From contig SBBO01000041.1 of the NCBI GenBank assembly GCA_005239675.1, positions 3,187 through 67,186 on the forward strand: a stretch of DNA of 64,000 bases, written 5' to 3'. The position numbers and the translations under genes were made by a program. The stretch comes from Planctomycetales bacterium. GTDB taxonomy: Bacteria; Omnitrophota; Gorgyraeia; Zapsychrales; Zapsychraceae. A model generated the notes under the pieces. The model made no database searches. It saw only the letters and a program-made list of their open reading frames with translations, and had not been told where the DNA came from. Positions 10,281 through 15,320 of this stretch are shown here, piece by piece. How positions within the stretch are numbered: the stretch's first letter is position 1; each line of letters opens with the position of its first letter.

Positions 10281-10508
10281 ATGTTCAACGTCATTCTCCT
10301 TGACCAGACACACGTGATTTTCGATGGGATGGCCAAGAGCGTCATCCTGCCGGGTGATGGGGGGGAATTTGAGGTCTTGGATTTTCATAAACCGATTATT
10401 ACTTCTTTGAGACGCGGGGAGATCGTCATCCACGGGATGGGGTTTCCCATATCCCGGGGTATTATGCGTTTTCACAAGGATCAGATGATTGTGTTAGTGG
10501 AATTGTAA
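10281..10508 (+). CDS. atpC: F-type ATPase epsilon-like subunit, beta-sandwich domain only (75 aa)
   Basis: VILLDQTHVIFDGMAKSVILPGDGGEFEVLDFHKPIITSLRRGEIVI matches the epsilon N-terminal pattern (..F.G.v..v.lPg.eGe.g.L..H.P.it.L..G.v.i). The protein ends where the C-terminal helical hairpin would begin. Confidence 0.7.
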   Translation: MFNVILLDQTHVIFDGMAKSVILPGDGGEFEVLDFHKPIITSLRRGEIVIHGMGFPISRGIMRFHKDQMIVLVEL

Positions 10509-10538
10509 GACATAAGAAATGGATTTAAGAGAATTCTA

Positions 10539-10757
10539 ATGGAAAATTTTGTCATCTTATTTATTATATTCTTGGTTGTCATAGGCCCATTGGCCGTCAT
10601 TGCGGTCCTCGGTTTCGCTACGATACGCGCCCTGGGGCGTAATCCTTCGGCCTCTTCTAAGATCTTGCCAACGATGATTATAAATCTTGTCTACACGGCG
10701 GGGGTCGCCATTATTGGGCTTTTGGTATTATTTCACATATTCGGGACGTCTTCATAG
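10539..10757 (+). CDS. F-type ATPase c-subunit-like hairpin protein (72 aa) without an ion-binding carboxylate
   Basis: Two hydrophobic helices are joined by a polar loop, LGRNPSA (compare ARQPE of c subunits). An ungapped alignment to the bacterial c-subunit pattern, written from memory, places Ala where the essential Glu/Asp sits. The only acidic residue in the protein is E2. Confidence 0.6.
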   Translation: MENFVILFIIFLVVIGPLAVIAVLGFATIRALGRNPSASSKILPTMIINLVYTAGVAIIGLLVLFHIFGTSS

Positions 10758-10774
10758 ATGTGAAAGGAAAATCT

Positions 10775-11539: not shown

Positions 11540-13024
11540 ATGCCAACCATCCATATTCAAGAAGTCGGTCGGGTCAAGGAAACTAAAAAAAGCATCGCCA
11601 AGATCACGGGGTTGACCCAATGCATGATCGGTCAGCTCATGCGTTTGAGCGATCATGCCCGAGGAATCGTTGTTGGATTCTCACGGGGTGAGGCGGTGGT
11701 CTTTCTCTTGGGCAGAATTGAAGAAGTGCGCATCGGGGATTTGGCCTATAGCCTTATGGAGCCGTTTACTATTCCGGTGGGGGAAGGGTTTTTGGGCCGG
11801 GTTGTCAATGCCCTGGCCGAGCCGATCGATGGGAAAGGATTCATTGGTGAGGTGGGGCATGGAGAATATCCTGTTTTTCGCAAGGCCCCGGGTGTTCTGC
11901 AGCGCGTTCCGATCACCAGGACCTTTGAAACGGGAGTTTTCATCGTTGATGCCACGATTCCCATCGGGAAGGGGCAGCGGGAACTAATTATTGGCGACCG
12001 GATGACGGGAAAGACCAGCATCTGCATGGATGCCCTGTTGAACCAGAAAGGCAAGGGGGTGGTGTGCATTTACTGCTGTGTGGGACGCACCTATACCTCA
12101 TTATTAAAAGCTATTGAGACCTTTAAAGAGACAGGTGCCTTGGGATATACGATCGTTGTCGCTGCGCATGCAGCTAGTCCCAGCGGTGAGCAATATCTGG
12201 TTCCGTATACCGCCTGCGCCCTGGGGGAATATTTTATGGATCACGGCCGCGACGTTTTTGTCGTATTTGACGATCTGACCAAACATGCCTGGGTCTATCG
12301 ACAGCTGTCCTTGCTATTAGAACGTCCGCCCGGGCGCGACGCGTATCCTGGAGATATTTTCTATCTGCATTCCCAGTTGATGGAGCGCGCCGGACAATAC
12401 AGTCCGGAGTTTGGTGGCGGCTCAATGACTTTCTTTCCCATTGTGGACACATTGCATGGTGACGTGACTGGTTATATCCCCTCCAATCTTATTTCTATGA
12501 CCGATGGGCAGATCTATATGAATACGTCGTTATTTAATAGCGGTTTTAGGCCGGCTATCGACTTGGGGCTTTCAGTATCTAGGATCGGCAATAAGGTCCA
12601 ATCACCGGTGATGCGTGAATTGACCGCCATGCTACGCCTGGAATATATGCGTTATAATGAACTGCTCAAGATCGCCCGGTTTAGAACGAATGTCTCTGGC
12701 CAGACAGATCAACGATTGCGTGAGGGTGAGGTCCTGACACAGTTGTTCCTGCAGATCAATGGCGAGCCGCACCCTGTCGCCAGGCAGATAATTTTTCTTT
12801 ATGCATTACGTCGCAAGATTTTACTCACCATGCCCGCAACCGAGATTGATTATTTCAAAAAGAACATTTATGATTTTGCTCAGAGAAAATATCCTGATGT
12901 GATAGACGAGCTAGTCGGGAAGATGGAATGGACGCCGCAATTGCGTCGTCGACTGGACGAGTGTTTCTTTGAGTTCTTTATGGAAAGAGGAGTGGTCATT
13001 AAAAGCCTGGAGTCGTCGCGTTAA
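11540..13024 (+). CDS. atpA: F1 ATPase alpha-like subunit
   Basis: GDRMTGKTSI (P-loop), DDLTKHAWVYRQLSLLLERPPGRDAYPGDIFYLHSQLMERAG, GGGSMTFFPIVDT..GDVTGYIPSNLISMTDGQIY and LSVSRIG (Arg finger position). Confidence 0.9.
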   Translation: MPTIHIQEVGRVKETKKSIAKITGLTQCMIGQLMRLSDHARGIVVGFSRGEAVVFLLGRIEEVRIGDLAYSLMEPFTIPVGEGFLGRVVNALAEPIDGKGFIGEVGHGEYPVFRKAPGVLQRVPITRTFETGVFIVDATIPIGKGQRELIIGDRMTGKTSICMDALLNQKGKGVVCIYCCVGRTYTSLLKAIETFKETGALGYTIVVAAHAASPSGEQYLVPYTACALGEYFMDHGRDVFVVFDDLTKHAWVYRQLSLLLERPPGRDAYPGDIFYLHSQLMERAGQYSPEFGGGSMTFFPIVDTLHGDVTGYIPSNLISMTDGQIYMNTSLFNSGFRPAIDLGLSVSRIGNKVQSPVMRELTAMLRLEYMRYNELLKIARFRTNVSGQTDQRLREGEVLTQLFLQINGEPHPVARQIIFLYALRRKILLTMPATEIDYFKKNIYDFAQRKYPDVIDELVGKMEWTPQLRRRLDECFFEFFMERGVVIKSLESSR

Positions 13025-13908
13025 TGCAATCCTTGCAGAATACCAAAGAGGACCTGCAGTTTAACACCCATATGGTGGAACTTATGGAGATCCTTAAGGG
13101 TATAACCACCGCCGAGTATTTGACGGTCATCAAGCGGCAGACGCGTTTCATGCGGTTCATGGAGGCCTTCAACGGTTTTTTTGATATCTTGGATTTTCAT
13201 ACGGTACAACATCCCTTTGCTCATCCGCAAGGCAGACTGGCCATATTGATGATTACTTCTAACGAATGGTTCATGGGTGGACTTAATACGCGCATTATTA
13301 ACGCGGCCTTAGAAAATGCTGATGCCCGTGAGGCGGTCTTTATCGCCGTTGGCGAGAAAGGGGCTGCTGCCTTGGAGGTCTGTGGCTATTTGCCTAAGAC
13401 ATTCCCAGGAGTGGCAGTCGATCAGTGTTATAAGACTGCTGTTGGGTTGCGCGATTACATCATGACCGAGACTAATAAGGGGACATTCGGACGGCTGGTC
13501 GTGTATTACCCACGCTCGATTTCGTTTATGGTACAGAGAGTCGAGGAATTGAAGCTTTTGCCGTGCACGGAATTGTTTCAGAGAACGGAAAAAGCCCCTA
13601 CCGAAGAAATTAAGGATCTGATCGTCGAATCATCACTCTCGGAGATGATTCAATATCTCGTGGAGACATGGATCGTCCAGAAATTATATGAAGTCCTTGA
13701 GGATAGCAAGCTCGCTGAGTTTTCCGCCCGCGTCATTCGTTTTGAGGAAAGTCTTCAACTTTTACAGGTGCGCGGGAGGGCAATCCGTTTGCAGTATTTG
13801 CGCAATTGGCATGAGTTGATCGATAAAGACATGCGCGATATATTCACTGCCCAGATCATGCGCCGTAAGAAAAAACAGGCAATGTTAGAAGCGCATCATT
13901 CATTGTAA
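13024..13908 (+). CDS. atpG: F1 ATPase gamma-like subunit
   Basis: Size is 294 aa. An N-terminal helix ([29 protein letters not shown]) and a C-terminal helix ([45 protein letters not shown]) follow the gamma pattern. Its position between alpha and beta fits, and its start overlaps the alpha stop (TAATG). Confidence 0.7.
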
Positions 13909-13916
13909 GTCAGCAC

Positions 13917-15320
13917 ATGGACAAATCGTGTAATCAGAGAGGTCGAATTATCGCTATTGAGGGCTCTGTCGTTGATGTCCAGTTTGACCACGATCAGGCA
14001 ATGCCTAATCTCTACGAGGCTATCGACACCAAGAATTTCAACGGCGACAAAATAATTCTTGAAGTTGTCGAACACCTAGAAAATAATGTCGCCCGCTGCA
14101 TTGCCCTGGGGACTACCCTTAATCTTTATTATCATGCACCGGTGTTTCCTTCTCAAGATGTTGTGCGCATTCCAACAGGCAATGAGGTATTTGGTCGCAT
14201 TGTCAACGTGTTAGGAGAACCCATCGATCACCAGGGGGCGATCAATGCAATCGAGACGAAGCCGATTCGGCACAGCATTTCATCTCTTAAGATTAATCCG
14301 GATCGACTGTTTCACGCGCAGGCGGATATTCTAGAGACGGGGATTAAGATGGTCGATTTCCTTTTTCCGTTAGTAAAGGGATCAAAGAGTGGCATCTTGG
14401 GGGGTGCGGCCCTGGGCAAAAGCATCTTAATGCTAGAAATGATCCATAATGTCGTCCAGGAGCATAGGGGGGTCTGTGTCTTTGCGGGGGTAGGTGAGCG
14501 TATCCGCGAGGGAAATGAGCTGTATTTTGAGCTCAAGAAACAAAATATCGCGGACAAGGTCATGATGGTGTTCGGTCAGATGGATGAGCCGCCGGGGGCG
14601 CGCTTCGAGGTCGCCATGACGGCGGTGACCTTGGCCGAGCATTTGCAGGACCAGAACAAGGATGTCCTTTTCTTTATTGATAATGTCTACCGTTTTATTC
14701 AGGCCGGGGCGGAGATATCGACCATGCTCGGCCGCGTCCCCTCGGAGTCAGGATATCAGCCGACGCTCGCCTCTGAGGTTAGCGATTTCCAGGAGCGGAT
14801 CCGCCCCAAAGAGAGCGGTTCGATCACGGCCCTGGAGGCCCTTTACGTCCCCGCCGATGACCTTACGGACCCAGCGGTTGTGACAATCTTTAGTTATTTA
14901 GACGCCCTATTGGTCCTCTCGCGTGAAAAGATTCAATTGGGGCTTTATCCAGCCGTGGATCCCTTGCTTTCTTCCAGCAGCAATCTGAATCAGGCGATTG
15001 TCGGCAAAGAACATTGTGACATCGCCCAAGAATGCTTGAAGCTCATCACCAAACATGAAGAATTGCGGCGTATCGTTGCTGTTATTGGGGTTGAGGAGCT
15101 TTCCAAGGCAGACCGCCTGCTGTATGATCGGGCCCGCAAGATATTGAATTTTCTCACACAGCCGTTTTTTACCGCTGAGATGTATACGGGTAGGAAAGGG
15201 GAATATGTTTCTGTGCACGATACTATCGACGGTTGTCGTAAAATTATTGAAGGCAGGGCTGACACAATGTCGGAAGATATTTTTTATCTAATTGGGAAAT
15301 TTCCAGAGACGACGGATTAA
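13917..15320 (+). CDS. atpD: F1 ATPase beta-like subunit
   Basis: GGAALGKS (P-loop), [13 protein letters not shown] (catalytic Glu), [39 protein letters not shown], and [11 protein letters not shown]. The DELSEED region is altered to VEELSKAD. Confidence 0.9.

Follow-up and report, generated by a model that had tools for sequence, protein, structure and literature searches.

What work can an F-type ATPase do when its gene cluster encodes no a-subunit? This subunit and the carboxylate of the c subunit are held to be indispensable in every ion-translocating rotary ATPase. The question is raised by six genes at positions 10281–15320 of a 64,000-nucleotide (nt) stretch of DNA (the window) from the Omnitrophota contig SBBO01000041.1, all on the forward strand, which encode epsilon, c, b/delta, alpha, gamma and beta homologs. 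The cluster belongs to a separate clade, found in at least 582 species genomes, that combines an intact F1 head, a central stalk, a c hairpin and a stator with an optional c carboxylate and no a gene in the locus. The six genes lie between a diguanylate cyclase gene and the genes of a machine resembling a type II secretion system (T2SS) or type IV pilus (T4P). On balance, we consider it somewhat probable that the encoded complex is a non-bioenergetic, ATP-hydrolyzing rotary module of the F type that is not coupled to ions and serves this machine under the control of cyclic di-GMP (c-di-GMP).

The open reading frames (ORFs) and their family matches bear out the order, coordinates and spacing given in an earlier, sequence-only reading of the window. 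Epsilon (10281–10508, 75 residues) matches PF02823 with E=7e-11, and the c-like proteolipid hairpin (10539–10757, 72 residues) scores 17.5 bits on PF00137, under the gathering score of 24. The b/delta peripheral-stalk protein ends at 11503, starts at an ATG at 10775 or, less likely, a GTG at 10760, and matches OSCP (E=1e-12). Alpha (11540–13024) reaches 510 bits on TIGR00962 against a cutoff of 484, gamma (13024–13908) matches PF00231 (E=2e-21) and beta (13917–15320) reaches 555 bits on TIGR01039 against a cutoff of 463. The successive intergenic gaps are 30, 2 or 17 (depending on the b/delta start), 36, −1 and 8 nt. Pfam and NCBIfam models thus recognize every subunit that is present, although gamma, epsilon, b/delta and c all score far under the NCBIfam equivalog cutoffs; for an a-subunit, the window holds no match better than E=0.1. 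Rfam and tRNA scans of the window gave no match.

To what extent the missing a-subunit is a property of the locus can be judged from its relatives. All six-frame ORFs of at least 45 residues in the window and 84 loci (83 related loci, numbered with an L below, and L001, the window's own source contig) were searched with E. coli AtpB and AtpI, Bacillus AtpB, AtpI and AtpZ, the a, AtpQ and AtpR sequences of two N-ATPase operons, and a four-sequence a profile. The a, AtpI, AtpZ, AtpQ and AtpR queries gave no match better than E=0.1, whether in the window or in the 83 related loci to about 10 kb around them, and AtpQ and AtpR in particular gave E values of 1.7 or higher. As a positive control, E. 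coli epsilon, gamma, delta, b and c each detected their counterpart in the same searches. A screen for ORFs of 150–450 residues with at least four transmembrane (TM) helices left no unassigned candidate in any locus core; the other ORFs that it returned, up to about 10 kb away, resemble prepilin peptidase, MenA and permeases, and the window has no multi-TM proteins other than GspF/PilC and MenA. The absence of an a-subunit gene from the operon, first noted for the window, is thus a conserved state across the related loci. Absence of atpB from the genome as a whole would be an extrapolation from the loci.

The c subunit departs from the canonical pattern in a second way. A profile of 27 c orthologs matches solved c subunits, best of all that of the Chloroflexus ATP synthase (9itj_H, E=3e-8), and the Glu of the family consensus FAEAIAVIALL aligns with their ion-binding Glu. 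In the window the corresponding segment reads YTAGVAIIGLL, with Ala in the carboxylate column, and the sole acidic residue of the protein, E2, lies outside both TM helices. The earlier suggestion of an Fo half that looks unable to conduct ions agrees with the window c and with the lack of an a-subunit in the locus. Across the clade, 47 of 63 species-level loci with a c gene keep the Glu. The other 16 have Q (nine loci), A (two) or F, V, T, M or S (one each). On a neighbor-joining (NJ) beta tree rooted with E. coli, the ancestral state of the column is Glu, and at least 12 changes between Glu and other residues are required. The best 120 database matches to the c profile, a sample biased toward the consensus, comprise 114 sequences with E, 5 with Q and 1 with M in this column, and all 120 contain the GRNPS loop, which we take to be the gamma/epsilon-contacting loop of F-ATPases (compare R41-Q42-P43 of E. 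coli c). A shift of the carboxylate to the first helix was considered and rejected: the TM1 of carboxylate-free c subunits has no acidic residue, and a TM1 Glu is found in no c ortholog, the variable Glu being confined to TM2. The invariant loop and the repeatedly changed carboxylate indicate that the connection to the rotor is strictly constrained and that, judged from the sequences, the carboxylate is dispensable in the clade, not universally lost. We know of no ion-translocating c-ring in which an optional carboxylate goes with a constrained loop. In three loci a second, more diverged c-like paralog follows the first (L080, 5641–5868; L082, 6505–6792; L083, 5981–6214); the first c of L083 has Ser in the carboxylate column, and its paralog retains a Glu in the second helix.

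These data bear on the most conventional explanation, an ordinary ion-coupled F1Fo whose a-subunit gene lies elsewhere in the genome and whose link to the pilus genes is incidental. Split atp loci are documented in several bacterial phyla and our search for the a-subunit is limited to the loci; most orthologs keep the c Glu and all keep the RNP loop, and alpha and beta pass the canonical equivalog cutoffs. Nevertheless, we regard such a split synthase as improbable, because in the window and in 16 of the 63 species loci an a-subunit encoded elsewhere would have no membrane carboxylate to act on, a state that has arisen in the course of the 12 or more changes. The scores of gamma, epsilon, b/delta and c, far short of the same type of cutoff, also speak against it.

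The catalytic head has the residues expected of an active enzyme. Beta contains the P-loop GGAALGKS, the catalytic Glu-Arg within GERIREGNE and Walker B within FFIDNVYRF; alpha contains the P-loop GDRMTGKT and the Arg finger in SVSRIG. The P-loop, catalytic Glu-Arg and Walker B are invariant among 22 diverse beta sequences of the clade, and the Arg finger is retained in each primary alpha. The head therefore looks catalytically competent, as had been proposed for the window, and would be expected to hydrolyze ATP. Window alpha is about 20 residues shorter at its N-terminus than E. coli alpha, with about 5 residues preceding the equivalent of E. coli position 25. In E. coli, the N-terminal tail of alpha binds the N-domain of delta.

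Many loci encode a second alpha paralog, alpha' (L002/L003, 4211–5770 and 3999–5558; also L007, L011, L012, L017, L021, L031, L041, L043, L049, L066 and L081), most commonly those labeled Kiritimatiellia, Lentisphaerota or Victivallales. Alpha' retains the P-loop but has Ile or Val in place of the Arg finger (SLSIVG versus SVSRIG); this suggests heads that combine alpha with alpha' and in which fewer interfaces are active.

The stalk subunits are reduced or strongly diverged. Residues 3–74 of window epsilon match positions 2–78 of the 80 in PF02823, corresponding to the N-terminal beta-sandwich only; the regulatory C-terminal helical hairpin is absent from the clade, whose epsilon proteins have a median length of 80 residues compared to 139 in E. 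coli. For gamma, a search of 1.84 billion representative proteins returned 551 at E<=1e-3, the closest being 49% identical.

The b/delta protein begins with a TM helix, continues as a helix of about 135 residues and ends in a C-terminal domain of the delta/OSCP type; it has no delta N-domain. Its match to OSCP covers profile positions 102–168, the C-terminal third, with further weak matches to b models, and its own profile aligns only with residues 109–173 of E. coli delta (hhalign probability 94%). In the orthologs, E. coli AtpF and AtpH match one and the same ORF, which confirms a b/delta fusion; the fusion seen in the sequence-only reading thus stands for both parts, with the restriction that the delta part is the C-terminal domain alone. 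An AlphaFold2 model (mean predicted local distance difference test score 84) likewise predicts a helix from residue 2 to 135, comprising the TM segment and stalk, a short helix and an alpha/beta domain at 171–239, and the best Foldseek matches of this model are a mycobacterial b-delta fusion and delta/OSCP C-terminal domains. The protein also matches TIGR03321, the long b of N-ATPases, colinearly (E=4e-8, 50–236 against 46–238 of 246). Its likeness to an N-ATPase stalk rests on this profile match, since direct comparison with the b subunit of the pAQ7 N-ATPase is weak (BLASTP E=3.4, hhalign 0.02). A word-indexed database search with b/delta found 15 close relatives only.

Where the head belongs among F-type ATPases can be gauged from NCBIfam scores calibrated with known enzymes. 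On the canonical, N-ATPase, Mycoplasma mobile gliding and MSC type 3 models, respectively, E. coli beta scores 875, 578, 495 and 427 bits, the beta of the pAQ7 N-ATPase 625, 804, 469 and 411, and window beta 555, 494, 394 and 391. The alpha subunits give 869, 558, 412 and 312 bits for E. coli, 654, 812, 416 and 296 for pAQ7, and 510, 480, 410 and 300 for the window. By this calibration the clade is further from canonical F1 than an N-ATPase is and shows no particular closeness to the Mycoplasma models. Identity to canonical sequences averages 47% for beta and 42% for alpha, compared to 77% and 70% among four canonical phyla. In a reciprocally rooted alpha+beta tree (440 columns, 100 bootstraps, references from the four canonical phyla and two N-ATPases), the clade is monophyletic in 100/100 replicates for beta and 91/100 for alpha, and canonical F1 and N-ATPases group to its exclusion in 83/100 in both halves; the tree is by NJ only, with few references, no Mollicutes sequences and some long branches. 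The alpha/beta pair thus falls outside both sets of references and does not nest inside canonical F1, and this also counts against a split synthase.

N-ATPases, encoded in the order atpDCQRBEFAG (Dibrova et al. 2010), are always a second copy, have no separate delta and have a long b with a delta C-terminal region, as here, and the present gene order is a circular permutation of theirs minus Q, R and a. However, N-ATPases are ion pumps that keep a, AtpQ, AtpR and a c subunit with the full Na+-binding set, including a Glu in both helices, parts that our cluster lacks. The window alpha and beta scores on the N-ATPase models TIGR03324 and TIGR03305 lie below the cutoffs of 750.5 and 752, which the pAQ7 proteins exceed. 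In both reference N-ATPase operons, gamma is immediately followed by a diguanylate cyclase gene (L086, 14729–16825, on pAQ7; L089, 14000–15365, on a Burkholderia plasmid), which could be a coincidence or a shared regulatory theme. Compared to canonical F1Fo, the cluster shares alpha, beta, gamma, the epsilon N-domain, b, the delta C-domain and c as well as the core order c-b-delta-alpha-gamma-beta, but lacks a and AtpI, the c carboxylate, the delta N-domain, the epsilon C-domain and the first ~20 residues of alpha, and is embedded in a pilus or secretion operon.

Loci of this type have been described before. The main text and searchable supplements of Seymour et al. (2023, Nat Microbiol, PMC10066038) report a "symbiotic type 2/3" non-respiratory F-type ATPase beside type IVa pilus (T4aP) genes in all classes of Omnitrophota and, among the Velamenicoccia, in 56 of 111 species, with ATPase and T4aP genes within 10 kb of each other on 57 of 66 contigs; a role in attachment or motility is proposed there. 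The window has the features of these loci, being from Omnitrophota and carrying alpha and beta of a non-canonical clade with pilus-like genes within 10 kb. In those parts of the work only alpha (and beta) is followed, the loci are filed under the Mycoplasma "type 2/3" ATPases with which they group in an alpha tree, and there is no mention of the missing a, the retained c and b/delta, the variable carboxylate, the truncated epsilon or the GGDEF/MshEN link. The literature that we searched contains no other paper that links F-type ATPases to pilus loci.

The label implies that the cluster is an ortholog of the Mycoplasma enzymes that power gliding on host cells, an idea that goes back to that alpha tree. 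Type 2 (the gliding G1-ATPase) and type 3 (MIB-MIP) likewise comprise a second, diverged F1 head (alpha, beta, gamma-like and epsilon-like) with a non-bioenergetic, ATP-consuming task and no a-subunit (PMC12994834), and in both cases a non-respiratory F1 copy has fast-evolving small subunits. The Mycoplasma clusters are, however, confined to Mollicutes and comprise seven genes, including three for unique proteins (with 3 and 12 TM helices), and none for c, b or delta; our loci keep c and b/delta, lack the unique proteins, and have T2SS/T4P genes as partners. Nor do the window proteins qualify by any Mycoplasma model: alpha and beta remain below the cutoffs of NF045863/NF045858 (gliding) and NF045936/NF045934 (type 3; MSC_0618 for beta). 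On the gliding alpha model the window alpha scores no better than those of E. coli and the N-ATPase, and on both beta models the window scores lower than E. coli. In comparison with PDB sequences, window beta scores 475 bits with a canonical beta and 323 with the M. mobile G1-ATPase beta (9io5). Orthology to the Mycoplasma ATPases therefore appears very unlikely, and the sequence-only judgment that the gene set and order match neither N-ATPases nor type 2/3 clusters agrees with the absent AtpQ and AtpR, the c and b/delta that are present and the model cutoffs that are not reached.

What, then, is the likely partner of this ATPase? The cluster, described earlier as an operon of six genes, does not stand alone: it lies within a same-strand block from 7364 to 24496. 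Epsilon is preceded by a membrane diguanylate cyclase (8327–10246; PF00990, E=3e-42; TIGR00254, E=1e-45), in which two periplasmic repeats and a TM segment are combined with a GGDEF domain whose GGDEF motif is intact. Beta is followed after 62 nt by a hexameric ATPase of the GspE/PilB type with an N-terminal MshEN domain (15383–17080; PF00437, E=1e-134; PF05157; 598 bits on GspE and 573 on PilB models) and by the GspF/PilC platform protein (17093–18370; PF00482, E=8e-59; TIGR02120, 355 bits). A GspG-type major pseudopilin (18409–18819; TIGR01710, 163.6 bits against an equivalog cutoff of 88.85) comes next, then two minor (pseudo)pilins and a GspK-like protein (18776–19267, 19254–19898 and 19855–20919, coordinates taken from the L001 gene calls shifted by +3916; N_methyl and T2SSK_1st matches, GspK model NF037980 E=3e-28), a PilM-PilN fusion that is GspL-like (20991–22469) and a PilO/GspM-like protein (22491–23033). 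The block ends with a 450-residue coiled-coil protein (23144–24496) with weak coiled-coil and FlgT_C matches only. Thus GspE/PilB, GspF/PilC, pseudopilins and PilM/N/O or GspL/M alignment proteins are all present, the GspE, PilB and GspF models falling just short of their equivalog cutoffs and GspG passing; among the genes of the window there is no secretin.

The N-terminus of GspE/PilB carries an MshE-type c-di-GMP motif (NF053729, 68.9 bits against a curated cutoff of 38), and together with the cyclase at the head of the unit this points to control by c-di-GMP. Upstream of the cyclase, a 298-residue exported protein (7364–8260) without a Pfam or NCBIfam match has a signal or TM segment followed by a domain of about 200 residues that occurs twice in the periplasmic part of the cyclase (BLASTP E=4e-17 and 7e-7). 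The protein is found in the same position in L004 and L006 and may provide the sensor input of the module. Further upstream, a giant secreted-type protein with Laminin_G_3 (concanavalin-like lectin) repeats in three stretches (1–6282, forward strand; PF13385, E=4e-80) runs off the 5' end of the window.

The only strong forward-strand terminator-like site between 6000 and 25600, a hairpin with a 10-bp stem and a T run at 7235–7260, lies 5' of the whole block and likely delimits the transcription unit on that side, and no comparable site was found within 7364–24496; co-transcription of the block is therefore plausible. In a promoter scan the signal did not exceed that expected from shuffled sequence. 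The hairpin at 7235–7260 (+) faces a second one with a T run at 7371–7345 (−) that has a near-identical stem (TATCCATCGC...), both in the 163-nt gap between a dienelactone-hydrolase-like gene and the 298-residue protein gene. The rest of the window encodes menaquinone, arginine and lysine biosynthesis, UvrA and ExbB, and no other rotary ATPase.

The association is not peculiar to this genome. One genome per GTDB species was scanned with two clade-specific beta peptides, ERIREGNE and FF[IVM]DNV[YF]RF, which confirmed the beta clade in at least 582 species genomes. The labels of the best 80 are mostly Omnitrophota, with Kiritimatiellia, Lentisphaerota/Victivallales, Planctomycetota and Verrucomicrobiota as well, and a few of the 80 are probably mis-binned, including one "Methanosarcinales archaeon"; the nearest named relatives of window beta are Candidatus Omnitrophica/Omnitrophota. 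The archaeal label belongs to the 87-kb contig JAIWAR010000001.1 (L079), which carries the complete module (GGDEF, c, b/delta, alpha, gamma, beta, PilB, epsilon and PilC) and is probably a mis-binned Omnitrophota contig. The contig is of note because a cultured member of the Omnitrophota preys on Methanosaeta.

In the window and the 83 related loci, each judged as far as its contig reaches, the order GGDEF-epsilon-c-b/delta-alpha-gamma-beta-GspE/PilB-GspF/PilC is nearly universal, so the six-gene order without atpB is a shared trait, as the sequence-only reading had asked of related genomes. In most loci a GGDEF gene lies ahead of the ATPase genes, at a median distance of 14.5 nt from epsilon, and the median gap from beta to PilB is 16 nt (75 loci). 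Loci labeled Kiritimatiellia or Lentisphaerota have the variant order GGDEF-alpha-alpha'-epsilon-c-b/delta-gamma-beta-PilB-PilC. In five loci (L046, L067, L075, L079 and L084) epsilon lies between PilB and PilC; in one of these, the complete chromosome CP070837.1 (L075; epsilon at 13112–13348), the PilB stop and the epsilon start overlap. If the enzyme were a split synthase beside pilus genes by chance, neither this near-universal, operon-like spacing with GGDEF and GspE/PilB nor an epsilon gene interleaved with PilB and PilC would be expected.

A same-strand ORF of at least 1000 residues lies upstream of the module in 25 of the 34 loci with enough upstream sequence. Nearly all of these giant ORFs run off the fetched stretch, and in 11 the GGDEF domain forms the C-terminus of the giant protein. 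Examples were noted in the window, L004 (1–4054), L015, L025, L028, L030, L032, L034, L051, L054, L060 and L061; the giant protein of L004, like that of the window, carries Laminin_G_3 lectin repeats. These proteins may be cargo or adhesins of the adjoining machine.

Some loci deviate in other details. Stand-alone MshEN-like proteins of about 155 residues (L015, 11414–11884; L054, 11407–11874 and 11874–12347), which match only the N-terminal part of GspE/PilB, sit between beta and a GspE/PilB of about 716 residues. Occasional insertions interrupt the ATPase block (L002/L003, 880–1242 and 668–1030; L009, 3218–3508; L067, 7034–7393; L070, 1304–1738): a receiver protein of the response-regulator type separates epsilon from c, and other inserts are a small ORF resembling GIY-YIG and small ORFs of helical character, the latter two types classed by eye from the sequence.

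The same conservation bears on the idea that the cluster is a decaying, functionless remnant of an atp operon. Losses are evident, as the a-subunit, the delta N-domain and the epsilon C-domain are gone, in the window along with the c carboxylate. A remnant would hardly persist in at least 582 species genomes with all ORFs intact in the window and the 83 related loci, invariant catalytic residues, conserved order and spacing of genes, and a mean column identity across the clade of 78% for beta and 70% for b/delta, and we give this idea next to no weight.

Which enzyme serves bioenergetics in the hosts can in part be taken from published annotations. The describers of the metagenome-assembled genome (MAG) of Ca. 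Zapsychrus exili, which contains L080, assigned a V-type ATP synthase to it. In the source data of Seymour et al. (PMC10066038), which we used for the KEGG Orthology (KO) patterns of three genomes, genome 221 has alpha and beta KOs and V-type subunits and no KO for a, b, c, delta or gamma. According to a 2026 preprint on 176 complete Omnitrophota genomes, alpha and beta KOs are present in 125 and a gamma KO in 30, most genomes lack a complete F1Fo, and V/A-type subunits occur in 70–99% of most Gorgyraeia. Alpha and beta KOs without a gamma KO are what a cluster as diverged as ours would yield. In at least some hosts, bioenergetics is thus reportedly handled by a different, V-type ATPase, a further point against a split F1Fo. 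In favor of a split F1Fo, the window itself encodes menaquinone synthesis (36502–40800: an enoyl-CoA hydratase-family protein, likely MenB; a UbiA-family protein, likely MenA; MenC; and an AMP-binding enzyme, likely MenE).

If the complex is not a synthase, need it rotate at all? The main mechanistic rival to a rotor is a non-rotating, membrane-tethered ATPase or chaperone platform comparable to FliI-FliH-FliJ, which would energize or gate the export of pseudopilins or of the giant protein, with the c hairpin and b/delta as mere anchors. By functional analogy only, FliI-FliH-FliJ is a comparable arrangement: a rotary-ATPase relative with stalk-like and stator-like partners at an export machine and no ion channel of its own. 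FliI, FliH and FliJ are related to F1 beta, b/delta and gamma, respectively. The position of the ATPase beside a secretion machine would suit an export ATPase, as would the giant ORFs upstream in 25 of 34 loci, the dispensable carboxylate and a weak FliH match to b/delta (E=0.097). On the other hand, FliI forms a homohexamer without a c-ring and its models score 160–208 bits here, whereas the present cluster keeps an alpha/beta heterohexamer with its Arg finger and a c hairpin, and a dedicated hexameric ATPase for export is already there in GspE/PilB. The full rotor set of gamma, epsilon and a c subunit with an invariant contact loop is conserved, which suggests that the connection between rotor and ring still matters. 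We therefore consider a static platform unlikely.

For the rotary module that we favor, the following picture can be drawn. The alpha3beta3 head would hydrolyze ATP, gamma and the short epsilon would form the central stalk, the c hairpin would serve as a membrane anchor or assemble into a ring, and a single stalk of the b/delta type would act as the stator; with no a-subunit there would be no ion path. The ATPase would form one transcriptional and functional unit with the diguanylate cyclase, often a giant surface protein, and the T2SS/T4P-like machine, and the complex would deliver mechanical or assembly work to this envelope machine, probably neither making ATP nor pumping ions. Possible outputs of the rotor are turning or loading the GspF/PilC platform or helping to export giant adhesins. 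The most interesting option is a carboxylate-free c-ring that turns against a b/delta stator held by proteins of the pilus platform. The sequence-only reading had already arrived at a membrane-anchored, ATP-driven rotor uncoupled from ion flow. Its grounds, namely the locus without an a gene, the window c without a carboxylate and the intact F1 residues, still stand, although it overlooked the pilus and GGDEF context as well as the Glu kept in most relatives, and hydrolysis and rotation are extrapolations from gene content there as in our own account.

Several observations weigh against this picture. We know of no T2SS or T4P that requires a second, rotary ATPase, and it is a problem what would hold the b helix against the ring for torque if there is no a-subunit. 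As many as 75% of species loci keep the Glu, as do 114 of the 120 best database matches; this suggests a continuing role in most lineages, perhaps in binding ions or in serving an unrecognized partner. Alpha and beta pass the canonical equivalog cutoffs (TIGR00962 and TIGR01039), the a-subunit search covers the window and about 10 kb around the loci while split atp operons exist elsewhere, and the menaquinone genes imply that the organism probably has quinone-based membrane energetics.

Judged by the searchable literature, the architecture is new: no a-subunit, c and b/delta retained, an optional carboxylate, a short epsilon and a stalk with the delta C-domain only. So are the module with GGDEF, MshEN and a giant protein, its spread beyond Omnitrophota together with an alpha' devoid of the Arg finger, and the finding that the "Mycoplasma type 2/3" label is unsupported. 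More tentatively, the module could represent a third case in which an F/V rotary ATPase was independently recruited for a task outside bioenergetics; the other two are the flagellar and type III secretion ATPase and the F1-like motors of Mycoplasma. Of the three, this one alone would keep a c-ring and stator, as a channel-less, ATP-driven rotor mechanically coupled to a c-di-GMP-gated T2SS/T4P-like machine and conserved in hundreds of species of Omnitrophota and other members of the Planctomycetes-Verrucomicrobia-Chlamydiae superphylum; this wider proposal is possible, but we hold it with considerable doubt.

KEGG and NCBI labels such as "F0F1 ATP synthase" on these alpha and beta proteins probably overstate the chemiosmotic capacity of Omnitrophota, Kiritimatiellia and Lentisphaerota MAGs. 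If the favored reading is true, the clade would offer a natural "uncoupled rotor" for probing the role of the c-ring without ion flow and would add a new accessory motor to the type II secretion/type IV pilus superfamily. It would also have a bearing on the ways in which Omnitrophota that are ultra-small and possibly predatory attach to other cells or attack them.

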